Below, in pieces: positions 4,418-20,969 of a stretch of 35,286 nucleotides of DNA. The translations under genes and the position numbers were made by a program. A model generated the notes under the pieces. That model did no database searches. It was not told where the DNA came from and saw nothing but the letters and a program-made list of their open reading frames with translations. Within the stretch, counting starts at the first letter, position 1, and every line of letters starts with the position of its first letter. Origin of the DNA: Alphaproteobacteria bacterium (GTDB lineage: Bacteria > Pseudomonadota > Alphaproteobacteria > CAAGCB01 > CAG-977); contig JAJXEL010000003.1 of assembly GCA_021639925.1 (NCBI GenBank), positions 1 to 35,286 on the forward strand, in the 5' to 3' direction.

Positions 4418-4861
4418 TTATTTGCGCCGCTGCGGTTTGGGATAAGTTCTTTCGGCGCCGTCGGCGAGTTTCTTTTGCCCGCGCGGGTATAAGAATTTGC
4501 CGTCCGGCGTTTTAATCGAACCGTCCGAATAAAGTTCGAATTTAAAAATATCCATTTTTGAAAAATCGGCAATGGTTTGAGCGCAGTCCCTTTTGCTGCG
4601 GCCGCGCTGAAACGTATAACTGTTCGCTTTTGCCGAAGCGTATAAACGCAAGGCGGCTTCTTCAGCGGCCTGAGACGGCGCCGTATTGCTGAAATACCGG
4701 CTGAGGATTTCTTCAAACTGATATAACTGGCGGTAAGCTCCGCAAGCCAGCACAACGCCGGCCAAAGTCCCGATGCTTTCGGTGTCTCTTCCCGACTGTG
4801 ACTGGGCCGAAGCGTTAAACGGCGCAAGAAAGATCATGAAAATAAGCAGAAAAACGCGCAT
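4418..4861 (-). CDS. Small secreted hypothetical protein
   Basis: 147-aa ORF with a signal peptide (MRVFLLIFMIFLAPFNASA) and no recognised motif. It is convergent with the binding-protein gene, with a 3-nt gap. Confidence 0.45.
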   Translation of the reverse strand: MRVFLLIFMIFLAPFNASAQSQSGRDTESIGTLAGVVLACGAYRQLYQFEEILSRYFSNTAPSQAAEEAALRLYASAKANSYTFQRGRSKRDCAQTIADFSKMDIFKFELYSDGSIKTPDGKFLYPRGQKKLADGAERTYPKPQRRK

Positions 4862-4965
4862 TTTAAAACTCTTTTGAAAAATACCCTGCGAATTAATTTA
4901 ACAGACAAAGGTTCATAAAATACTAACGATTCGCCGCGGCGGGCCCATAATTTTTCAATCATTGT

Positions 4966-9859: not shown

Positions 9860-10564
9860 ATGGAAAAAAGTATGTCAAATGCGTCTGTCCGCCAAAATAT
9901 CAAGAAAGCCGCGGCTTTGGGAATGCCTCCGGCAGACGGCGGACGTATGTCTACTTTTATGTGGTTATCGCGTTTTTTCAGCGTGTTATGCTTTTTTTTA
10001 ATAACATCGCTGGCTGCTTTGGCGCTTTCCCTGATTCATATTACCAAAGAAGCGGAAGTCAACTCTGTATTGGTGACGGCGCCGACATATTCGGAAAACC
10101 TGTCTTATTTTGAACCGCTGCACCCGGATATGCCCGCGATGGATATTCTGGCGGAAATGTTCGTGCGCCAATATGTGACGGCCAGAAATAACGTTTGGCG
10201 CAATGCGCCTGAAATGCGGCGTATGTGGGGGCCCGGCGGCGTTGTGCGTTATATGTCAACGCCGGCTGTATATGATGATTTTGTCCGCCGGGAAGTCGGC
10301 AGATATTTTCCCGAACCCGAATATGCTCCGAAGGTTATGGTTGAAACGGATATCAAAAAAATTATTAAAGAAGGCTGGAACAGCTGGCAGATTTTTTTTG
10401 ATACCCGTAAAATGGACACGTCAATCAGCCAGCCGGTTGTTGAACATTGGATCGCCACCATACAGTTTCGTTACTATTCCGATAACGCCGTAATGTTTTC
10501 CCGTCTGCGCAATCCGCTGGGATTTACGGTAACTCAATATCATCTGGCCCGTCAGAAAAAATAA
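9860..10564 (+). CDS. virB8: VirB8-like T4SS inner-membrane protein, paralog 1
   Basis: Bitopic topology: short N-terminus, TM (FFSVLCFFLITSLAALALSLI), then a periplasmic domain of about 170 aa. It has the C-terminal RLRNPLGFTVTQY motif, which matches the NPxGF signature of VirB8. It is clearly paralogous to 10789-11562 (shared RQYV..RN, WGP.G..R.MS...VY..F and RL.NPLGF.V..Y). Confidence 0.65.
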   Translation: MEKSMSNASVRQNIKKAAALGMPPADGGRMSTFMWLSRFFSVLCFFLITSLAALALSLIHITKEAEVNSVLVTAPTYSENLSYFEPLHPDMPAMDILAEMFVRQYVTARNNVWRNAPEMRRMWGPGGVVRYMSTPAVYDDFVRREVGRYFPEPEYAPKVMVETDIKKIIKEGWNSWQIFFDTRKMDTSISQPVVEHWIATIQFRYYSDNAVMFSRLRNPLGFTVTQYHLARQKK

Positions 10565-10582
10565 AAGGGGAGGAATAAAAAA

Positions 10583-10777
10583 ATGAAGAAAAAAATAATC
10601 GGCAGAATGTTTTTTATGATCGCTTTGTGCGCCGTGTTGAATTCATGCGGCTCTATTTATGAAAAAGAACCGATCGGAATAGGCCCGGATATTTCTGAAT
10701 TGAAACGTTCTCCGTGCGCTTGTATGCTTTTAAAACTGCCGGCCGATTTGCCTGAATGGATAACGGCTCAGGGATAA
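10583..10777 (+). CDS. Small lipoprotein in the VirB7 position
   Basis: 64 aa with a signal peptide and a lipobox-like VLNSC|G, preceded by a strong RBS (GGGGAGGA). The call rests on position between the virB8 paralogs and on size. No VirB7 sequence motif was recognised. Confidence 0.45.
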   Translation: MKKKIIGRMFFMIALCAVLNSCGSIYEKEPIGIGPDISELKRSPCACMLLKLPADLPEWITAQG

Positions 10778-10788
10778 CGGGATAAAAA

Positions 10789-11562
10789 ATGATGCCAAAA
10801 CCGGTAAAATCAAAACAACAGCTGACAGTCAAAGAATCTGACGATAAGCCTTTGCAAAAAGGCGGGCCGCGCGGCAATGTCGATTTGAAAAAAACAGCTG
10901 CGGAAGAAACGGCACGCGAAGAAATTTCGGTGGATCTGCTGCGTGAAAGGCGTTATCTGTGGACGGCTCGCGCTTTTGCGATCGTTTCCGCCGTAGCGCT
11001 GTGCGTTAATTTGGTTTTACTGCTGGCGATTGTTCATATGATGCCGTTGAAACGTGTCGAACCGTTTTTGCTGACATTCCAGAACAAAGACGAACAGGTC
11101 GTCAAGATCCGTCCTTTGGCAAAGGACATGTCGGCCGAAGACATTATTTCCGAAGCCATGATCCGGCAATATGTTTTGCTGCGTAACACTATGATTTCCG
11201 ATGTTGACGAAATGTCGTTCCGCTGGGGGCCGGACGGTCCTTTGCGCTGGATGTCTTCGGCGCAGGTGTATAACCAGTTTGCCAAAACGGTAAAAGACTG
11301 GCTGTCCAGAATTAAATTGGAAGGCTTGACGCGTGAAGTCAGAATTGAATCCGTCGTCCGCAACCAGAACATTTGGCTGGTTTATATCGTTACGCGCGAT
11401 ATGCTGCCGGAAGCCGAAGAACCTGCCATTTCGCGTTGGCGTATCCGCTTGTCAATCAAGTACTTCGCCAAAGATCAAAGAGAAGTCAAATATATCGACC
11501 GTTTGAAAAATCCGCTGGGATTTGCCGTCGATGGATATGCTATTGAAAGTGCTAACGATTAA
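10789..11562 (+). CDS. virB8: VirB8-like T4SS inner-membrane protein, paralog 2
   Basis: Cytoplasmic N-terminus of about 60 aa, TM (FAIVSAVALCVNLVLLLAIV), a periplasmic NTF2-like-sized domain and the C-terminal RLKNPLGFAVDGY. Confidence 0.7.
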   Translation: MMPKPVKSKQQLTVKESDDKPLQKGGPRGNVDLKKTAAEETAREEISVDLLRERRYLWTARAFAIVSAVALCVNLVLLLAIVHMMPLKRVEPFLLTFQNKDEQVVKIRPLAKDMSAEDIISEAMIRQYVLLRNTMISDVDEMSFRWGPDGPLRWMSSAQVYNQFAKTVKDWLSRIKLEGLTREVRIESVVRNQNIWLVYIVTRDMLPEAEEPAISRWRIRLSIKYFAKDQREVKYIDRLKNPLGFAVDGYAIESAND

Positions 11563-11574
11563 AGAAGGTGTCCC

Positions 11575-13110
11575 GTGAAAAGAAATTTTAAAATCCGCCT
11601 TTTTGCTTTTGTTTCATTGTCGTTGTGTTTTTTAACGCACACAGCTGCGGCACAGCAGACGGCGGCGCGTGAATCAATGGACGCGGCGATTGAACAGTCA
11701 AACGGACAATATTCCGAAATCGATATGCCGTTTTGGTCTTTGGGCATGCAGCAAAAAGCATGGAACAAACCGATGGAGCATTTGGGCGAAGGACAGTCCA
11801 AACCGGGGTATTCCAGATATCATTGGACGCCTGATCTGGTTTTGCCTTTGCGTATCCGGGAAGGCATGCATACGCTGATTAATTTCCCGTCCTGGGAATT
11901 GATTGAAAACGTTTTTTTGGGAAATGAAAGCGCTTTTGGCGCGCAGAAAGTCGCGCAAAACGCTTTGATGGTTTTCGCGGCAAGCGTTGATCTGGTCGGT
12001 ATGGATACGAATATGATTGTTTTCGGCCGTTCCGGCAACCGATACGTTTTTTATTTAAGAAGCGAAACCTTTAATACGGACAGAATTACAAACTCTGTCG
12101 TTGATATTGTTGTCAATGATACGAAATTTGTTCCCGACGATTCCGGACAGACGCCTTTTGCTTCCGGCGCTGTCGGCGCGGGAGCTGCTTCTGTCGCGGG
12201 GGGCGCCGGAAATTTCAGCGGCGGCAGTCTGCGCGGCGGAAAAAAAACGACGACAAAAAACGGAACGGAAGACTGGCTGGCGGATATTGAAGTCGATCCC
12301 GAAAAACTGCGTTTCGACATTGACGTTTTTATTCCGAATCCGGCTGATATGGAAATTGCGCCCGAACGTGTCTGGCGCGATGAAATTTTCACTTATATTG
12401 ACTTCGGGCCGAAAGCTTTGACAATGACGGAACGCCCGATCGTCAACCTGTTGTCGCAAGGATCCGAAGTGCCTATCGGATTCAGAACGCGCGGACCGAA
12501 CGGCAGACTGATGGTTGTCGAAGGAATCGGCGATTTGGTTTTGCGCAACGGAAAACGTATTTTATGCCTGAAAATCAGAAAAGATCCGACTTACGGCACC
12601 GAATGGGTGGAATATGAAGAATCTGTCCAGCCGAAATGGTCGCCTGGCCCGATGATTACGACGGGCGGTTATAATATGTCTGCGGGCGGTGCCGGCGGCG
12701 GCGCGGTTAATATGAATATGCAGGCGGCGGCGAATGCCATGATGATGCCGGCCGGGGCGAACGGAACGTTGTCGGCTAATCAGATCGCGCAGTTTTCACA
12801 GACAGGGCGCGGCAGTTCCCGTACGGTACAGCGTTATCGCGGCGCGCCTGTGGAAACGATTGCCGTCGAGCTGGGATCTGACAGCGAAATCGCGCCGCTG
12901 GAACAGAAATGGGATAATATTTCTCGCAGAAACAAAGATCTGCTCGGCGGGTATGAACCGTATTATTCCGTTGACGCTGTGGCGGAAGGCGAATCAAGGG
13001 ATTTGTTCCGTTTGCGCATCGGTCCTGTTGACAGTATCGAAGCCGGGGACAAATTATGTAATCAATTAGGTCGCCGCGGGGTGACTTGCATGGTTGTGCG
13101 GACACAATGA
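11575..13110 (+). CDS. virB9: VirB9/CagX/TrbG-family outer-membrane core protein with a C-terminal SPOR-like domain
   Basis: GTG start after a GAAGG RBS, with signal peptide MKRNFKIRLFAFVSLSLCFLTHTAAA. The N-terminal VirB9 domain reads LRIREGMHTLINFPSWELIENVFLGNESAF...TNMIVFGRSGNRYVFYLRSE. The C-terminal VirB9 domain reads PERVWRDEIFTYIDFG...LMVVEGIGDLVLRNGKRILCLKI. The last 85 aa or so resemble a SPOR domain. Confidence 0.8.
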   Translation: MKRNFKIRLFAFVSLSLCFLTHTAAAQQTAARESMDAAIEQSNGQYSEIDMPFWSLGMQQKAWNKPMEHLGEGQSKPGYSRYHWTPDLVLPLRIREGMHTLINFPSWELIENVFLGNESAFGAQKVAQNALMVFAASVDLVGMDTNMIVFGRSGNRYVFYLRSETFNTDRITNSVVDIVVNDTKFVPDDSGQTPFASGAVGAGAASVAGGAGNFSGGSLRGGKKTTTKNGTEDWLADIEVDPEKLRFDIDVFIPNPADMEIAPERVWRDEIFTYIDFGPKALTMTERPIVNLLSQGSEVPIGFRTRGPNGRLMVVEGIGDLVLRNGKRILCLKIRKDPTYGTEWVEYEESVQPKWSPGPMITTGGYNMSAGGAGGGAVNMNMQAAANAMMMPAGANGTLSANQIAQFSQTGRGSSRTVQRYRGAPVETIAVELGSDSEIAPLEQKWDNISRRNKDLLGGYEPYYSVDAVAEGESRDLFRLRIGPVDSIEAGDKLCNQLGRRGVTCMVVRTQ

Positions 13111-16100
13111 ACGAAGAATTACTCAGCTCATCAGACAGATACTTAAAAAAATCCAACAAGATGTTGTTGATTGTCGGGATTATAGCCTTTTTGGCTTTCC
13201 TGACAGGGGTTATTGTTTTGTTGAGCGGAGGCGAAGAAGGCAAGAAAGACGCCGAAGTCACTATTGGCGGATCGGCGGAAAGCTCCAGCAGTATTACCGG
13301 CGGCAATGCGGATACGTTTAATCTGGCCGAAGAGCCGGCTCCTTCAACCGTGCGGCTGGTCGTAACGCCGGAAACAATGCGTTTCGATCAGGTTGTGCTG
13401 GGTACTGTGGCGGAAGGAACGTTGACATTGTCGGCTTCTTCCGGCCGGATCAGTATTACTTCGATAGAGTTTGAAAATAAACAGGAAGACGGCTTTGTCC
13501 TGGAAAACAAATGCCGTAAAGACATTGTCCTGACCGGTGATGTTACCTGTAACGTTGTTGTTCGCTGGGAACCAAAGACGGCGCGGACAATCCAGTCTAA
13601 CCTGGCGGTCCGCTGGGCTGATGAAACATTCGGCGGTATCGGCAGAAAAGTCATTGTTCCCATTTCGGCAATGGCGATTGACACCAGCATGTGCGGCGTC
13701 TGCGATGAAGCGCCGGGCAGCGGCGGTTCCATGCTTGACCAGTTGCGTCAAAAAGGACGCGTTATTTTGGGGCCCGACGGAAAACCGATCGGTTATGCCG
13801 ATGAAAACGGCGTTGTTTACGGGCTGGACGGCAAACGGATAGGCACTTTGCGCGAAGACGGAACGGTCGTTGACGATCAGGGGTATGTGATCGGCGTGGC
13901 GGAAGGAACTCGGCTGGCAATCGGCCCGAACGGAGAAATTCTGGGAACGATTTTACCTGACGGGCGTGTCATTGACAAAGACGGCCGCCTGATCGGTTAC
14001 GCTTTGCCTGACGGAACGATCGTCGATCTGGACGGAAATGTTATCGGGTCGGCGGTAAGAACGGGAATAGCTTATGATAAAAACGGCAATCCGATCGGAC
14101 GGATTATGCCTGACGGAACGGTCGTTGATGAAAACGGAAATATCATCGGCTATTTAAATCCGGACGGAACGATTGTCGATGCCAACGGAAACATTATCGG
14201 ATCGGTCGCGCCGCAGGGCACCGTTGTGGACGCTTCGGGCAAAGCGTTGGGCATTGTTATGCCGGACGGAACGGTCGTTGATGCCGACGGCAACATTATC
14301 GGCCGCGTTCTGCCTAACGGTTTTGTCGTTGACAGAGACGGCAACATTATCGGCCGCGTTGTTAAAGAAGGACTGGCCATTGGTCCCGGCTGCCGTATGA
14401 TTGGCCGGATCAGTACGGACGGTTCCGTTATGTCTTCAAACCGGCAGGTCGGGCGTTTGACGGCGTCAATGACGGTTGTCGACATGTCGGGCAATCCGAT
14501 CGGCGGTTATGTGGAAGAAGGGGCTTTGATTGACTGGGCCGGAAAAATTGTCGGTAAAGTGGATCAGGACGGCCACCCGGTCAGTTTCAAAGGAGATCCT
14601 CTGGGGTGTCTGACGCCTTACGGCACAGTTGTTAATGATGCCGAAGAAATTATGGCGGCCGTTTTGCCGAAGGGAACCGTTGTCGGCACGCAATGCGGCG
14701 TTGTCGGGCGCGTTATGCCGGACGGCAGCGTTGTCGGCGACGGGCAGATCAAAGGGCGGATTTTGCCGGACAAATCATTTTTGTCGACAGAAGGAAAAAT
14801 TGAAGGAGCCCTGGCGCGTCAAAATGTCGGCGTCGGGCCGGGGTGCCTGTCTTTGGGATACGCCAATATAGACGGGCAGGTTATTACGGCGAAGGGGGAA
14901 TTTGTCGGTTGTCTGGCGGCGAACGGAGAAATTCTGGATAATCAAAAAGTCGTTTTGGGCCGGATTCTTGATTCTGCCATCGCGTTAAACGCGGACGGTC
15001 GTGTCGTCGGTATTATGGATCCCGCCGGCAAGATTCAGGATAAACAGGGAAAAATTCTGGGGTGTATGGATCCCGACGGTTTGGTAATAAATTCCAAAAA
15101 TGAATCGGTCGGTATGCTGATGCCGATAGGCGGCGTTTTGGATCGCGACGGCCGAACAATCGGCTGGGTCATGCCGGACGGGTCTGTTTCCAACGCCAAA
15201 AACAGTACGATCGGCAAAGTCATGCCGGACGGAACCGTAATTGATTTGAGCGGGCAGACGGTCGCGCGTGTCGCCCCGCATAAAGGCGTCGCGTTAAGAA
15301 GCGCCTGCGAACCGGCCGGTACCATTTTGGTTGACGGCCGTGTCGTGGACAAAGAATTTAAACGATCGGCCTATATTCAGATGAATGATACGCTGGTTGG
15401 TGAAAACGGAGATTTTGTCGGTCGTGTCGCTTACGGATCGCGGGCAATCAGTCCTAAAGACATGTATCTGGGGACAACGGCAAACGATGGCGCGCTGTAT
15501 AATCCGGCAGGGGAAAAAATCGGCTGTCTGCGTCCGGATTCCTTGTTTGTTGATTCAAATAATAAATTTTTAGGGGCAGCTTTACCCGAAGGAATCGCCA
15601 TTAATAATAAATCAGAGCTATACGCCCGCGGCGATTCGATTGCCAAAGCTTTGAATTTAAAGGGAACTGAATTTATCGGATCAATAACGCTCAGCAGTTT
15701 TGTCAAGGAAGGCGATACGATTTCCGGCGGTATTATTCCGGACAGAGCCGATGTTCTGGATATTAAAACCAGCGAAAAAATCGGCCGTCTGCTGCCTGAC
15801 GGAACGGCTTTGGATTTGCTCAGCCGTTATTTGGGGCGTTTAAGAATGCCCGGCGGCGAAATCGTGAACAAAGACGGCCGCGTCGTCGGTAAAATATTTG
15901 TCGGCATGCGGCAGGTGATCGGCCCGAACGGAGAAATTCTGGGCGTTGTCATGCCTGACGGAACGGTTGTTGACGCTTCCGGCCGCGTTATCGGCAAAGC
16001 GGATCTGAACGGAAAAGTGGTTGACGCTTCCGGGCGCGTCATCGGCGAAGTTATTCCGGTCGGCCAGCCGATTATAGGTCCTGACGGTAAAATTATCGGT

Positions 16101-19100
16101 TATGTCGGCATCGACGGGCAGATCGTTGACAAAGACGGCAATCCCGTTTTGGGTCCTGACGGAAAACCGCTGCGTTACCGGGCGGGCGGATCTGTCGTTG
16201 AAGACAGCGGAAAAGTGATCGGCAGAATCGGCGACACGCTGGAACGCCTGGTGTATGATGAAAACGGCAACGTGATCGGCCGTGTTCTGCCTGACGGAAC
16301 GGTTGTTGATTTAAACGGCAACGTGATCGGGAAAATGCTGCCCGACGGAACGGTTGTTGATTTAAATGGAAACGTTATCGGGCGGGCCGGGCCGCCGGAA
16401 CGGCTGGTATATGATGAAAACGGCAATCTGATCGGCCGTGTTCTGGCCGACGGAACGGTCGTTGATTTGAAAGGCAACGTGATCGGCCGTGTCCAGGCTG
16501 ACGGAACGGTAACCGCCCTGGGGTCAAAAGTGATCGGTTATACTGTTAAGGACGGTCTGGGGCTGAACTTTAAAAATGAAATTATCGGCAAAATCGATTC
16601 TTCCGGACAGCTGAAAGAAGCGGGATCGGATAAATCTCTGGGGGTTCTGCAGGCGGACGATACGATTACCGACAGCCGAAACGCCATTATCGGCAAAGGG
16701 GTCGTGAACGCTGTTCCCGTCGGGCTGCAATGCCAGATGCTTGGTTCGATTGATGACAAAGGGCAGGTCATTGATACGGCGGGCCGGCAGATCGGGCGGC
16801 TGAATTTTGACCGGACTTTGGTTAATTCCGGTAATTCTCAGATCGGTTTGGCTTTGGGGCAGGAATCTATCATCAACGAACCGTGCAAAATCATCGGACA
16901 AATTACGGCGGAAGGAAAAGCCGTTGATACCAAAGGCGCGGAAATCGGCTGCGTTGATTTTGAAGGATTGGTAAAAGATAAAAACGGCAAACGTTTGGGG
17001 CGTATTGTCCAAAAAGGACAAATTCGCGGCCCTGACGACCAAATGATCGGCAGGATTGTTTCCAGCGGCGAAGCGTTGGGGGCAGAGGGGAATGCCTTAG
17101 GCTGTTTTTCTGTTGACGGGGCTGTTTTAGATAAAAATAAAAAAATTCTGGGGGTCGCGGCGGACATGAAATATGCCGTTGACGATCAGGGAAAAATTGT
17201 CGCGCATATTCTGGGCGGAACGTATGGCGTTAATCCCGAAGGCGGCGCTTTTGTCGGAACGTTGAACGGGCAGAATTTAACCGGATCTGATAATAAACAG
17301 CTGGGCGTTCTGGTGCCTTCCGGCCGGCGTGTGATCGCCGTGGACGGCAAAACGATCGGTACCGTTTTGCCCCGCGGACGCGTTCATAACGACCGCGGAG
17401 AAGAAATCGGCTATGTTACGTCTTCAATGCGCGTTTTAACCGGCGACCGTAAGTTTTTAGGCCGTGTCGTTCCGATCGGCGAAGAATGTAAAGACGGTAA
17501 AAATAATGTTGTCGGAACCGTTCATTTCGACGGGACGATTGTTGATGAAAGAAAGCAGGTCCTGGGACGTTTGCTGGCCAGCGGGCAGGCTTTGGATAAT
17601 GCCGGGGCGCATTTATGCATGATCTCTTTAATCAGCACAAATGACGACGGGTCTTTGTTCCCGAAAGGGTTAATCGGCAAAATGGTTTACGGGCCGGACG
17701 GCAAACCTTTGGGGGTTGTCGGCGCTGACGGTTTTATCCGCGATGCGAACGGCAATATTATCGGCCGTGTTCTGCCTGATGGTACGGTCGTTGATTTAAA
17801 CGGCAATGTGATCGGCAAAGCGTATCCGAAAGGGGCCGTGTTCAGCCCTGACGGGAAATTCCTTGGAATTGTTGATGCGGACGGGTATCTGCGCGATGAA
17901 AACGGTAACATCATCGGCAGAATGTTGCCGGACGGAACGGTCGTCGATATTAACGGCAACATTATCGGCCGCGCTTTGCTGGAAGATGGCATTGTCGATT
18001 CAAAAGGAAATTTCCTGACCAGAGCGGGTGAAGACCGGCTGGTATATGATGAAAACGGCAACGTGATCGGCCGTGTTTTACCCGACGGAACGGTTGTTGA
18101 CTTAAACGGTAAAGTCATCGGAAAAATGCTGCCCGACGGAACAGTCGTTGATTTGAACGGCAAGGTTATTGGTAAAGCTGCTCCGGCCGGTCAGTCAAAA
18201 AATGTCCGTATAGCCGTCGGCCGTGACGGAAAGTTCTTGGGCATTGTCGGTGAGGACGGTTTTGTCCGGGACGAAAACGGCAATATTATCGGCCGTGTTC
18301 TGCCTGACGGTACGGTCGTTGATTTAAACGGTAATGTGATCGGTTCCGTTATTGAAGGGGAACCGATGCGCGACGAAAACGGCAATATCATCGGTGTTAT
18401 TATGCCCGACGGACGGGTCGTTGACCTGGACGGCAATGTGATCGGACGCATTAATGCAAACGGAGAAATCGTTGACGCGGACGGAACCGTTTTGGGAACG
18501 TGGCGCGGCGGAAAACTGACGGCGATGAGCGACAAGCTGCAACAAAAACGTTTTGCTTTCGGCAAAGACGGCAAACGGATCGGCATGATTATGCCCGACG
18601 GAACGGTCGTTGATGAAAACGGCAATATTATCGGCCGCGTTGATGAAAACGGTAATGTTATTGATCTGGACGGCAATATTATCGGGACGGTTACGGATCC
18701 GGGGGCGGTCGCCGGACAACAAGGGGGCCAAGGGGACCAAAAAGATGACCGTGTGTCTATTTTTGGCACTTTTGATCCGGATAATTACCGGTATCGCGGC
18801 AAATCTTTGGGGGCCGGCGGCGGCACCGGAAAAGGGGAACGTTACGATCCTGCCCGGATTAAACAGCTGCGGGCGCTGCAGATGGCTTACCGCCGCCAGA
18901 TCAGGCCGGGGCGGGGAATAGGTATAGCCTCTGTTGAAGAAGATTTGATGAAAAAACAAAAACGCAGCAAAAACTGGAATGCTTTGGGGATACAGAAAAA
19001 TGTTTCTTCATATCGCGTCAACATGGATAATATGATTTTGGCGGATAAAGCGATTCCTGCCGTTTTGGCGCGTTCTATTGATACGGAACAGGAAGATATT

Positions 19101-19973
19101 CCCATTTCCGCGATTGTTGAGCGCAATATTTATTCCGAATCAGGACGTAAAATTATTATTCCCGCCGGCAGCCGTATTATCGGTGAATTGTCGGGTACGT
19201 CCGCTTCTGAAGAAGTCGGGTCGGCTTCGAAAGTCGAAATTGAATGGACCCGCCTGATTCGTCCGGACGGCGCAGCGTTCCAGTTTGAAGAAGGCGTTTC
19301 CGGCGATGCTTCCGGCCGCGCGGGCGTCGGCGCGTATATGGATCGTCAGCTGATGAAGAAATACGGGCTGCCGGTGGTTCAGTCAACAATTACTTCTGCG
19401 ATTTTGTATGCGATGGCGACAAACGATTCCGCGGCTGTCGGATCTGAAGGCGAAGTCGCTATGTCCGGCCGTCAGCAGGCGGCGGAAGATGCGCGTACCA
19501 GATTTTCCGATACGATGCAGGAAATTTTTGATGATTTAATTACCGAAACGTCAAAGCTGAAAACACGTTTGTTTGTTCCGGCCGGGACGCGTATTACTGT
19601 TTTTGCTAAATCTGATCTGTGGCTGCGCAGCTCTTTGGAAGACGAGGAAGAAGAAAACGGCGAAATCACGAAGCCTAATGTTTTGTTGGATCCGGATAAA
19701 GAATTCCCTGAAGGAGAAACAACGCCGGCACAAGGCGGCGACGTCAATACCAATAATGCAAACCAGGGAAATCCGAATGATCCGAATAACTTGCAGCAGC
19801 AGCAGCAAATTTATTATAATAACTACGCCGGCCAGCAGCCGCAGCAACAGCCTCAGCCGCCGCAGCTGATTGATCCCAATAAACACAAACAGCAGCCGCA
19901 GCAACTTGTTCCGCAGCAGACAATGCAGGAAAAGAAAGAAGAACCGGTTGATCCTGTTCCCGAGCTTTTCTAA
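13107..19973 (+). CDS. virB10: Giant VirB10/TrbI-family T4SS core protein (about 2,288 aa) with a large internal tandem-repeat region
   Basis: ATG 13107 overlaps the virB9 stop (ATGA). The N-terminal TM is MLLIVGIIAFLAFLTGVIVLL. The C-terminal TrbI/VirB10 pattern lies at about 19020-19630: ILADKAIPAVLARSIDTEQEDIPISAIVERNIYSESGRKIIIPAGSRIIGEL, VEIEWTRLIRPDGAAFQF, GDASGRAGVGAYMDRQL and LFVPAGTRITVFAKSDLWL. About 1,640 aa of 17-aa repeats lie between the two ends. Confidence 0.85.
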   Translation: MNEELLSSSDRYLKKSNKMLLIVGIIAFLAFLTGVIVLLSGGEEGKKDAEVTIGGSAESSSSITGGNADTFNLAEEPAPSTVRLVVTPETMRFDQVVLGTVAEGTLTLSASSGRISITSIEFENKQEDGFVLENKCRKDIVLTGDVTCNVVVRWEPKTARTIQSNLAVRWADETFGGIGRKVIVPISAMAIDTSMCGVCDEAPGSGGSMLDQLRQKGRVILGPDGKPIGYADENGVVYGLDGKRIGTLREDGTVVDDQGYVIGVAEGTRLAIGPNGEILGTILPDGRVIDKDGRLIGYALPDGTIVDLDGNVIGSAVRTGIAYDKNGNPIGRIMPDGTVVDENGNIIGYLNPDGTIVDANGNIIGSVAPQGTVVDASGKALGIVMPDGTVVDADGNIIGRVLPNGFVVDRDGNIIGRVVKEGLAIGPGCRMIGRISTDGSVMSSNRQVGRLTASMTVVDMSGNPIGGYVEEGALIDWAGKIVGKVDQDGHPVSFKGDPLGCLTPYGTVVNDAEEIMAAVLPKGTVVGTQCGVVGRVMPDGSVVGDGQIKGRILPDKSFLSTEGKIEGALARQNVGVGPGCLSLGYANIDGQVITAKGEFVGCLAANGEILDNQKVVLGRILDSAIALNADGRVVGIMDPAGKIQDKQGKILGCMDPDGLVINSKNESVGMLMPIGGVLDRDGRTIGWVMPDGSVSNAKNSTIGKVMPDGTVIDLSGQTVARVAPHKGVALRSACEPAGTILVDGRVVDKEFKRSAYIQMNDTLVGENGDFVGRVAYGSRAISPKDMYLGTTANDGALYNPAGEKIGCLRPDSLFVDSNNKFLGAALPEGIAINNKSELYARGDSIAKALNLKGTEFIGSITLSSFVKEGDTISGGIIPDRADVLDIKTSEKIGRLLPDGTALDLLSRYLGRLRMPGGEIVNKDGRVVGKIFVGMRQVIGPNGEILGVVMPDGTVVDASGRVIGKADLNGKVVDASGRVIGEVIPVGQPIIGPDGKIIGYVGIDGQIVDKDGNPVLGPDGKPLRYRAGGSVVEDSGKVIGRIGDTLERLVYDENGNVIGRVLPDGTVVDLNGNVIGKMLPDGTVVDLNGNVIGRAGPPERLVYDENGNLIGRVLADGTVVDLKGNVIGRVQADGTVTALGSKVIGYTVKDGLGLNFKNEIIGKIDSSGQLKEAGSDKSLGVLQADDTITDSRNAIIGKGVVNAVPVGLQCQMLGSIDDKGQVIDTAGRQIGRLNFDRTLVNSGNSQIGLALGQESIINEPCKIIGQITAEGKAVDTKGAEIGCVDFEGLVKDKNGKRLGRIVQKGQIRGPDDQMIGRIVSSGEALGAEGNALGCFSVDGAVLDKNKKILGVAADMKYAVDDQGKIVAHILGGTYGVNPEGGAFVGTLNGQNLTGSDNKQLGVLVPSGRRVIAVDGKTIGTVLPRGRVHNDRGEEIGYVTSSMRVLTGDRKFLGRVVPIGEECKDGKNNVVGTVHFDGTIVDERKQVLGRLLASGQALDNAGAHLCMISLISTNDDGSLFPKGLIGKMVYGPDGKPLGVVGADGFIRDANGNIIGRVLPDGTVVDLNGNVIGKAYPKGAVFSPDGKFLGIVDADGYLRDENGNIIGRMLPDGTVVDINGNIIGRALLEDGIVDSKGNFLTRAGEDRLVYDENGNVIGRVLPDGTVVDLNGKVIGKMLPDGTVVDLNGKVIGKAAPAGQSKNVRIAVGRDGKFLGIVGEDGFVRDENGNIIGRVLPDGTVVDLNGNVIGSVIEGEPMRDENGNIIGVIMPDGRVVDLDGNVIGRINANGEIVDADGTVLGTWRGGKLTAMSDKLQQKRFAFGKDGKRIGMIMPDGTVVDENGNIIGRVDENGNVIDLDGNIIGTVTDPGAVAGQQGGQGDQKDDRVSIFGTFDPDNYRYRGKSLGAGGGTGKGERYDPARIKQLRALQMAYRRQIRPGRGIGIASVEEDLMKKQKRSKNWNALGIQKNVSSYRVNMDNMILADKAIPAVLARSIDTEQEDIPISAIVERNIYSESGRKIIIPAGSRIIGELSGTSASEEVGSASKVEIEWTRLIRPDGAAFQFEEGVSGDASGRAGVGAYMDRQLMKKYGLPVVQSTITSAILYAMATNDSAAVGSEGEVAMSGRQQAAEDARTRFSDTMQEIFDDLITETSKLKTRLFVPAGTRITVFAKSDLWLRSSLEDEEEENGEITKPNVLLDPDKEFPEGETTPAQGGDVNTNNANQGNPNDPNNLQQQQQIYYNNYAGQQPQQQPQPPQLIDPNKHKQQPQQLVPQQTMQEKKEEPVDPVPELF
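13765..18695 (+). repeat. In-frame tandem array with 51-nt (17-aa) period, consensus about P-D-G-T-V-V-D-x-x-G-N-I/V-I-G-x-V/M-L, on the order of 90-100 units
   Basis: At 14104-14360 there are five consecutive exact-length units: PDGTVVDENGNIIGYLN, PDGTIVDANGNIIGSVA, PQGTVVDASGKALGIVM, PDGTVVDADGNIIGRVL and PNGFVVDRDGNIIGRVV. Well-conserved blocks sit at about 13765-14370, 15920-16540 and 17690-18695, separated by degenerate units. The unit count is region length divided by 17, not an exact count. Confidence 0.85.
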
Positions 19974-19991: not shown

Positions 19992-20969
19992 ATGAGTACG
20001 GATTCCTTTCAGGTTTTAAAATCAACATTGCGTTATCTGTCCTATTGGTATGAACAGGATAACGTGGAAGAAGTTGCCATTAACCGGCCGAATGAAATCT
20101 GGCTGCGCCTGCGCGGGCGCCGGGCTCATCCCTGGGCGTGCCAGCAGGACGCGAACCTGTCCAGAACATATTTGACGGATATTATGCATATTATCGCCAA
20201 CACTTTTGAATTGCCGTTTGACCCCGAACAGGGATCGCCGGCCGTTTATGCCACTTTGCCGGGCGATCACCGTTTTACGGGAATTGCCGGTAAAAACGTC
20301 ATGTATGATAATGAAGATTTAACCGGCGGTATCGCTATGTGCGTGCGCGTTCATTCCGACGACGTCAAATTCGGTTTGGGCGATTACGGGTTAAAATCAG
20401 GGGAACGTCTGCAAAAATTGAATAAATTAAAAGAAGTGGAAAATCCCGAAGATCCTTACGAACGTTTAATTCTGTCGATTAAACGCGGCGACCATATTTT
20501 GGTTTCCGGGGCGACGGCAACCGGTAAAACAACATTTTTGAATAACCTGCTGACAATTTTGGATTCACATAAACGGGTGATTACGATTGAAGATACCCGC
20601 GAATTGATCGTTCCGCACCCTAATCATGTTCATTTGGTGTTGTCGCGTACCGAACAGACAAATACGATGACATATCCGAAACTGATTGACCTGGTCGTCC
20701 GTTTTACGCCTGACGCGATTATCGGAGGGGAAATTTCGACGGCAAACGCGGGGGCGTTGTGGGAATTGATGGGATCCGGGCATGATAACTGCTTTGCGAC
20801 AATCCACGCCGAAAATTCCGAAGCTGCTTATAAAGCGTTTACAGACCGTATTTTGCATTGTTATCCGACGATTGACCGCGAAAAAACGATTTCCGAAATG
20901 CATGACAAACTGCGTGTTGTCCAGATTAACCGCCAGGGCAATATCCGCGCCGTAACGGAAGTAACCTGA
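19992..20969 (+). CDS. virB11: VirB11 T4SS traffic ATPase
   Basis: Motifs EVAINRPNEIWL, Walker A SGATATGKTTFLN, ITIEDTRE, GGEISTANAGALWELMGSGHDNCFATIHA. A GAGGGG RBS lies upstream. Confidence 0.9.
   Translation: MSTDSFQVLKSTLRYLSYWYEQDNVEEVAINRPNEIWLRLRGRRAHPWACQQDANLSRTYLTDIMHIIANTFELPFDPEQGSPAVYATLPGDHRFTGIAGKNVMYDNEDLTGGIAMCVRVHSDDVKFGLGDYGLKSGERLQKLNKLKEVENPEDPYERLILSIKRGDHILVSGATATGKTTFLNNLLTILDSHKRVITIEDTRELIVPHPNHVHLVLSRTEQTNTMTYPKLIDLVVRFTPDAIIGGEISTANAGALWELMGSGHDNCFATIHAENSEAAYKAFTDRILHCYPTIDREKTISEMHDKLRVVQINRQGNIRAVTEVT

Follow-up and report, generated by a model that had tools for sequence, protein, structure and literature searches.

This analysis concerns a single open reading frame (ORF) and the long internal repeat array that it carries, within a window of 35,286 nucleotides (nt) from an uncultured alphaproteobacterium (contig JAJXEL010000003.1). 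The ORF at 13107-19973 encodes the giant VirB10 of a chromosomal type IV secretion system (T4SS) of an uncultured gut alphaproteobacterium. An earlier account made from the letters alone, called here the sequence-only reading, had already named the gene virB10. The label is right because the protein carries a TrbI domain and the gene has virB8, virB9 and virB11 as neighbors. Its ATG overlaps the TGA stop of virB9 as ATGA (13107-13110). A repeat region of about 1,650 amino acids (aa) sits between a putative inner-membrane anchor and the C-terminal TrbI domain. The features discussed below are collected in Table 1.

Table 1. Features in and around the giant virB10 gene, in window coordinates
Feature	Position	Strand	Remarks
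Two tandem virB8 paralogues, 9860-10564 and 10789-11562	9860-11562	+	Domain search
virB9/CagX homologue, 511 aa, with C-terminal SPOR (peptidoglycan-binding) domain	11575-13110	+	Domain search
Giant virB10 coding sequence	13107-19973	+	2,288 aa; TrbI and Bflower_2 Pfam matches
Putative N-terminal hydrophobic membrane anchor, aa 19-40, MLLIVGIIAFLAFLTGVIVLLS	13161-13226	+	Translation judged by eye
Repeat region, ~97 units of 17 aa (51 nt), beta-hairpin/beta-flower/DUF3659 type	13779-18731	+	Pfam Bflower_2, autocorrelation, AlphaFold2 model
N-terminal cluster of better-conserved 51-nt units, minor indel site	13959-14353	+	Repeat family D1
51-nt-spaced near-duplicate	15969-15994 vs 16020-16045	+	24/26 identical, offset 51 nt
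Hotspot A: ~105-aa insert of two 156-nt units (16237-16537), copy of hotspot-B block	16197-16571	+	Tandem Repeats Finder, relatives' alignments
Pair 2	16248-16318 vs 18039-18109	+	66/71 identical, offset 1791 nt
Third, more diverged copy	16404-16474 vs 16248-16318	+	63/71 identical, offset 156 nt
Hotspot B: main in-frame indel site among relatives	17649-18239	+	Relatives' alignments
Pair 1	17748-17815 vs 18276-18343	+	66/68 identical, offset 528 nt
Segment missing from L001/P0006: 68 aa (4 x 17), 204 nt (4 x 51)	17922-18125	+	Hotspot B
C-terminal TrbI/VirB10 domain, aa 1977-2173	19035-19625	+	PF03743, E 3.1e-28, 99.4 bits (cutoff 35)
Q/P/N-rich tail 3' of TrbI	19632-19970	+	Length varies among orthologues; ends in conserved DP(V/A)PELF (DPVPELF)
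virB11 ATPase	19992-20969	+	Domain search

The protein is a divergent member of the VirB10/TrbI family and not an equivalog; the NCBIfam equivalog cutoffs were missed both for T4SS_VirB10 (89 bits against 220) and for ComB10 (104.6 against 300). In a sequence search of the PDB, the TrbI domain matched ComB10 (2bhv, E 1.8e-15, the best match), CagY and VirB10, and solved-structure matches were limited to this domain, with none over the repeats. The repeat region displays a clear 17-aa periodicity, with autocorrelation peaks at 17, 34, 51, 68 and 85 aa, and matches Pfam Bflower_2 in 17 stretches (E 1.7e-127). The beta-flower profiles PF21785 and PF21784 (CL0395) score 418 bits (cutoff 38) and 138.6 bits (cutoff 25), respectively. 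DUF3659 and Bflower also match this region, and RHS/YD repeats match it more weakly. A non-repeat domain at window 13360-13700 (aa ~85-200) separates the putative membrane anchor from the repeats; it matches 'choice-of-anchor D' (immunoglobulin-like) weakly (NCBIfam E 0.0027), and just 3' of it, ahead of the array, stands a conserved CGVC motif.

An AlphaFold2 model of aa 1489-1818, built on an alignment of 8 sequences, is all-beta by DSSP, with a strand about every 8.5 aa (pLDDT 65.7, pTM 0.32) and low-confidence breaks at aa ~1632-1643 and ~1692-1698. Because of this strand spacing, one 17-aa unit is predicted to form one beta-hairpin. A Foldseek search of the model against the PDB returned local Rhs/YD-shell matches at a TM score of ~0.1, and no fold was assigned from it. 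The beta-flower fold was defined in 2023 from AlphaFold models: beta-hairpin 'petals' form a shallow barrel and carry a [DNEQ]xxG motif at the tip (PMC10584680). The same hairpin-tip motif is present in the window repeats. The described beta-flower proteins (CL0395) are small stand-alone domains of ~96 aa, whereas the window protein holds about 17-19 domain-equivalents fused in one T4SS subunit.

At the DNA level, the sequence-only reading had pointed to four alignments between repeat copies inside the gene, and all four proved exact in identity and offset (Table 1). A self dot-plot over all offsets across the coding sequence, scored in 60-nt windows, placed pair 1 (58/60) and pair 2 (56/60) on the top diagonals, and the best 40 diagonals were in frame without exception (40/40). 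A repeat-family search found 10-25 copies of the 51-nt unit over 13.8-18.7 kb. Tandem Repeats Finder delimited an array of 51/105/156 nt at 16237-16537, in which the 156-nt period is a higher-order unit; it found no array in the gene beyond 16.2-16.5 kb, the remainder being too degenerate or dispersed. Exact repeat pairs of at least 16 nt, the metric of Aras et al. 2003, number 51, all of them in frame (51/51), and none occurs in three control stretches of 6.9 kb. The longest exact repeats measure 33 nt (16254/18045) and 32 nt (17748/18276). The repeats had been called long, which is a relative term here: the longest similar blocks are 68 nt at 97% and 140 nt at 87%, and exact runs do not exceed 33 nt.

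The 1791-nt spacing of pair 2 is explained by a dispersed duplication within the gene, since hotspot A holds a 105-aa block (ERLVYDENG...RAGPPERLVYDENG...) that duplicates the one found at hotspot B in L004 and L006. It had also been stressed that all offsets are multiples of 3. This is true, but it follows automatically from the homology of the coding repeats and carries no independent evidential weight. The idea that such offsets reflect selection for in-frame recombination was discarded on the same ground.

The DNA similarity of certain copies exceeds what the protein repeat alone would impose. Codon identity was scored over 926 pairs of 22-codon windows, each pair sharing 15 or more identical residues. 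At identical residues its median was 0.60, where codon usage predicts ~0.3-0.5, and pair 1 (20/22 identical codons) and pair 2 (18/22) were the extremes of the whole set. In a shuffle test, synonymous codons were permuted 300 times under an unchanged protein sequence. The best 66-nt window reached 55.8 +/- 1.5 in these shuffles, with a maximum of 61; the 64 observed for pair 1 was attained in none of the 300 shuffles. Pair 2 (60-61) merely equals the largest shuffled maximum and is borderline in this test. Mean identity over the 926 windows was 48.4 observed against 44.65 +/- 0.34 shuffled.

Comparison with the allele of 'uncultured Rhodospirillaceae UMGS1296' (L003; 94% aa and 89.3% nt identity to the window gene) adds a further line of evidence. 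The two genes are collinear over the whole array, with both copies of each pair in both, and hence both copies predate their split. Among 60-nt windows, the best paralogue equals or exceeds the L003 orthologue only at 14091-14150, 16302-16387, 17724-17824, 18031-18142 and 18244-18350. Moreover, the 68-nt core of pair 1 has CCT/GGT/TTA in both window copies and CCC/GGG/CTG in both L003 copies. Because paralogues are here more alike than orthologues, and because both copies share parallel synonymous states in each lineage, the flagged blocks bear the classic signature of gene conversion. In this respect the gene conversion suggested in the sequence-only reading is supported.

Alignment of the window protein with 23 alleles of 53-94% aa identity allowed repeat-region indels of at least 10 aa to be mapped. 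All of them fall at hotspot A (16197-16571), at hotspot B (17649-18239), at 13974-14126 (one event) or at the array end (18684-18749). None was found among these alleles in 14130-16190 or 16650-17640, about 3 kb of degenerate repeats. Relatives therefore differ by in-frame blocks of 15-189 aa at the flagged places, which agrees with the earlier suggestion that these copies serve as recombination substrates. Indel sizes of 15, 49, 51, 52, 54, 68, 79, 105 and 189 aa were seen; length variants had been anticipated in multiples of 51 nt or of the larger block sizes, and the observed sizes are not simply multiples of 51 nt.

Hotspot B accounts for a large variety of alleles. Relative to the window protein, L004 and L006 have 52 aa more, L011 and L012 have 49 aa more, L007 has 54 aa fewer and P0007 lacks 159/189 aa, and a 79-aa dimorphism separates P0001 and P0136. 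At hotspot A, L002 is longer by 51 aa and L007 shorter by 105 aa, and the insert is missing from the P0001-P0009 clade as well. The segment between the conserved anchors LC[MS]IS and VRIAVGRDGKF measures 124, 184, 192, 199, 244, 278 or 324 aa depending on lineage. P0007 (2,015 aa) differs from P0004 (2,201 aa) by a 567-nt deletion whose edges are the orthologues of pair 1, with ~100 nt of high identity. In the nearest species, L003, L013 and L014 (99.5-99.99% identical) are collinear and free of indels. A fourth allele, L001 (96.6% identical), carries a deletion of 204 nt with flanks that share only 8 nt exactly and 46/60 overall. According to the structural model, this deletion (aa 1606-1673) would fuse hairpins rather than break one, because it spans a segment tail, a low-confidence linker and the next segment, in register.

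Variation within populations was assessed by clusters at 90% identity. One length prevails across the full-length members of 10 of the 14 multi-member clusters, differences of 1 aa aside; examples are 2,201/2,202 aa in 15 listed of 141 members, 2,156 aa in 15 and 1,581 aa in 14. Three clusters, P0012, P0002 and P0001, hold two length classes. In P0012, the 2,428- and 2,350-aa forms differ by a 79-aa indel and make up two clean clades ~50 substitutions apart, so this dimorphism is one old event. In P0002, the lengths are 2,205 aa (P0002) and 2,154 aa (P0165), with a 51-aa (3 x 17) indel at aa 282-332 (nt 13974-14126) between proteins that are 99.6% identical. The pair P0036 and P0297 (2279 vs 2097 aa) was also considered as length alleles and was discarded as a terminal truncation.

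The P0001 cluster, a sister species, is the most informative case. It contains at least 7 long sequences (2,290 aa) and at least 6 short ones (2,211/2,212 aa). The long allele (L019 coding sequence, 4471-4944) carries two tandem units of 237 nt that are 228/237 identical (96.2%), with a longest exact run of 60 nt, and alleles with and without the 237-nt indel are 98.9% identical. Over 6.6 kb, 16-39 substitutions separate long from short alleles, which does not exceed the divergence among the long ones, and the length classes are intermixed among strains 1-13 aa apart. At nine diagnostic sites, the short alleles L021-L025 show the hybrid patterns 222222222, 212222222 and 211111122. The intermixed lengths, the few substitutions and the differing hybrid patterns point to several independent exchanges within one species, and no other example of recurrent unequal exchange in the giant beta-hairpin VirB10 family is as clear as this fresh duplication. 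A size polymorphism at the population level had been proposed for the locus. The sister species is dimorphic, apparently through independent crossovers, but 10 of the 14 clusters are invariant. The proposed comparison of alleles between related strains likewise gave a divided answer, with length differences at the flagged sites and a single length in most clusters.

The natural point of reference is cagY of Helicobacter pylori, a VirB10 orthologue with many direct DNA repeats, whose recombination produces insertions or deletions that are always in frame (PMC2194252, PMC3585145); the precedent cited in the sequence-only reading is thus a real one. Exact repeat pairs of 16 bp or longer exceed 300 per strain, and rearrangement was RecA-independent. 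Deletions in cagY are flanked by identical repeats of 33-156 bp, and a 33-bp repeat is enough in vivo. H. pylori CagY (Cag7; FRR/MRR) is, like the window VirB10, a protein of ~2,000 aa whose VirB10/TrbI domain is preceded, on the N-terminal side, by a huge internal repeat region. The CagY repeats are described as alpha-helical modules (PMC2581425), whereas the window repeats are predicted 17-aa beta-hairpins. CagY chains align to the window protein at aa 1985-2100 only, with no similarity outside TrbI. In addition, cagY changes within hosts in weeks, whereas alleles of the window family are mostly invariant and exact repeat pairs are about 6-fold fewer. The organisms differ too: H. pylori on one side and, on the other, an uncultured gut alphaproteobacterium that is not a known pathogen. 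The window virB10 therefore resembles cagY in kind and not in tempo, and it stands outside the CagY repeat family.

Canonical VirB10, TrbI and ComB10 proteins share with the window protein the C-terminal TrbI domain, the N-terminal anchor (putative here) and the gene order virB8-virB9-virB10-virB11. They are ~250-450 aa long (406 aa in Xanthomonas, 6gyb_c; 246 aa in ComB10, 2bhv_A), against 2,288 aa here. Canonical VirB10 has a short proline-rich linker, in whose place the window protein has its ~1,650 aa of repeats. Another point of comparison is DotG (IcmE) of Legionella and Coxiella, a VirB10-like subunit of the type IVB secretion system whose C-terminus is preceded by long central pentapeptide-type repeats; both the repeat type and the T4SS class differ from those of the window.

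We consider it probable that an old, degenerate array with a few recombining, homogenized segments gives rise to slow, in-frame change in hairpin number. Most of the array is old, degenerate in DNA and collinear in all relatives examined. Younger or homogenized copies occupy ~16.2-16.6 kb and ~17.65-18.45 kb, with a minor site at ~13.96-14.35 kb. There, non-allelic exchange between copies in 51-nt register has copied blocks within the gene, kept paralogues more alike than orthologues and added or removed whole hairpins; with a repeat unit of 17 codons, every product stays in frame. The route would combine gene conversion with unequal crossing-over or (RecA-independent) replication slippage. 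Such events would accumulate over strain and species divergence and would become common only at a recent tandem duplication that offers at least 100 nt of ~96% identity, the rate thus depending on how fresh the duplication is. Hairpin number, and hence the size of the VirB10 linker, may in this way change without destroying the protein.

Several points weigh against this account. The L001 deletion may be either microhomology slippage or an assembly artefact, because its flanks share so little sequence. The comparison alleles are all drawn from short-read metagenome assemblies, in which repeats may be collapsed or broken, and the contigs of two close relatives (L015, L016) end or turn chimeric inside virB10. 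An exact look-up of the window protein in a public gene index gave no match, and an allele of its own species was not found. Lineage-specific drift in codon usage or GC content could inflate the similarity of paralogues within a genome. Finally, clustering at 90% identity may split off alleles of very different length and so overstate invariance.

If the assembly problem were general, the length alleles of the relatives would be products of repeat collapse or expansion, and the real genes would all have one length. The broken L015 and L016 contigs speak for this view, as does L001, a 6.3-kb contig that starts with Ns and has poor homology flanking its deletion. Intermixed lengths among near-identical strains would also be expected from sporadic collapse. 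Nevertheless, the alleles recur over independent samples and assemblers, and the P0001 short alleles are found in assemblies by MEGAHIT (k141 and k119) and SPAdes and in an NCBI metagenome-assembled genome (MAG). The longest exact run in the 237-nt duplication, at 60 nt, is well under the MEGAHIT word sizes of 119-141. Species-level indels (L002, L004, L006, L007, L011, L012) are moreover embedded in otherwise diverged sequence. A general artefact is hence improbable. Even less credible is an absence of recombination altogether, in which purifying selection on the hairpin motif and codon bias would keep repeats alike and the length differences would be ancient. Such a view gains from the strong conservation of the protein repeat and from a background codon identity that already stands at 0.60 among repeats. 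It is contradicted by pair 1, which exceeds all 300 synonymous shuffles, by the excess of paralogue over orthologue identity at the flagged blocks only, by the parallel synonymous states and by indels that separate alleles 96.6-99.8% identical in nt.

The sequence-only reading had favored a contingency-type locus. A true CagY-like contingency locus, or rheostat, would undergo frequent within-host repeat recombination, selected by immunity, phage or competitors, and would switch or tune the T4SS. Gene family and in-frame repeat logic are indeed shared with cagY (PMC2194252, PMC3585145), the exact repeats of 33 and 32 nt in the window gene compare with the 33-bp repeat that sufficed for cagY deletion in vivo, and the P0001 species shows both lengths among near-identical strains with differing crossover points. 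Against this stand the 10 of 14 clusters that keep one length over many samples, the single old event behind the P0012 dimorphism and the 51 exact pairs, compared with more than 300 per cagY. Long perfect repeats and simple-sequence repeats are absent; exact runs end at 33 nt, and similar blocks are 87-97% identical over 68-140 nt. The nearest species, with three collinear alleles and one deletion variant, also counters the label. Frequent switching of this kind is therefore unlikely, and a fast contingency locus is not supported, whereas the alignments do support in-frame recombinational length variation between strains and species. By analogy with CagY, the array could be a second, independently evolved tuning module in gut commensal Alphaproteobacteria, in which in-frame recombination at the two hotspots shifts hairpin number and so alters T4SS activity or antigenicity under immune, phage or competitor selection, a suggestion we regard as unlikely. 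If it were true, repeat-driven 'rheostat' control would be a convergent property of host-associated T4SSs and not a Helicobacter peculiarity.

The gene belongs to a sizeable family. A scoring of 8,000 candidates gave 927 matching proteins. The best 120 of these 927 span 1,376-2,609 aa and combine beta-flower and TrbI matches in 119 of 120 cases, and the names given to them are nearly always hypothetical or DUF3659 protein, from 'Alphaproteobacteria bacterium' MAGs. Genome and metagenome scans recovered orthologous loci from human-gut, rumen and other gut MAGs, with orthologues of 2,015-2,341 aa. The metagenome scan contributed 7 loci, including L015 and L016, which were truncated or chimeric and uninformative. 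L016 becomes unrelated sequence right after its hotspot-A equivalent, and assemblies at this locus are fragile. No paper describing a beta-flower VirB10 or a giant alphaproteobacterial VirB10 was found in a literature search of incomplete coverage, so that a prior description is possible; the family of giant beta-hairpin VirB10 proteins is apparently undescribed. A large clade of uncultured gut Alphaproteobacteria carries a VirB10 as large as CagY with repeats of an unrelated, predicted all-beta fold, an architecture common to at least 120 protein clusters at 90% identity. This links the recently defined beta-flower fold to a concrete machine. If the account holds, it offers a second natural system for studying what role a giant repeat linker plays in a T4SS and whether the number of units is tuned for function.

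The gene order virB8-virB8-virB9-virB10-virB11 is matched in related loci. The window holds no virB2-virB7 or virD4, and TrkH and FlaF come after virB11; the T4SS genes must therefore be split across the chromosome. A foreign island was rejected, as GC content is uniform over the cluster and its flanks. The flanks consist of housekeeping genes. The window opens (1-430) with the 3' end of an upstream ORF, which codes for a low-complexity (QQDQQQ)n tract; this holds 23 exact direct-repeat pairs of at least 16 nt, and in the five pairs listed every offset is divisible by 3. It is followed at 432-2294 by a BatD-like ORF. Opposite the repeat array, the minus strand shows many ORFs of 90-210 aa (e.g., 18324-18959), which most likely reflect the repetitive, G-rich pattern of codons and not genes.

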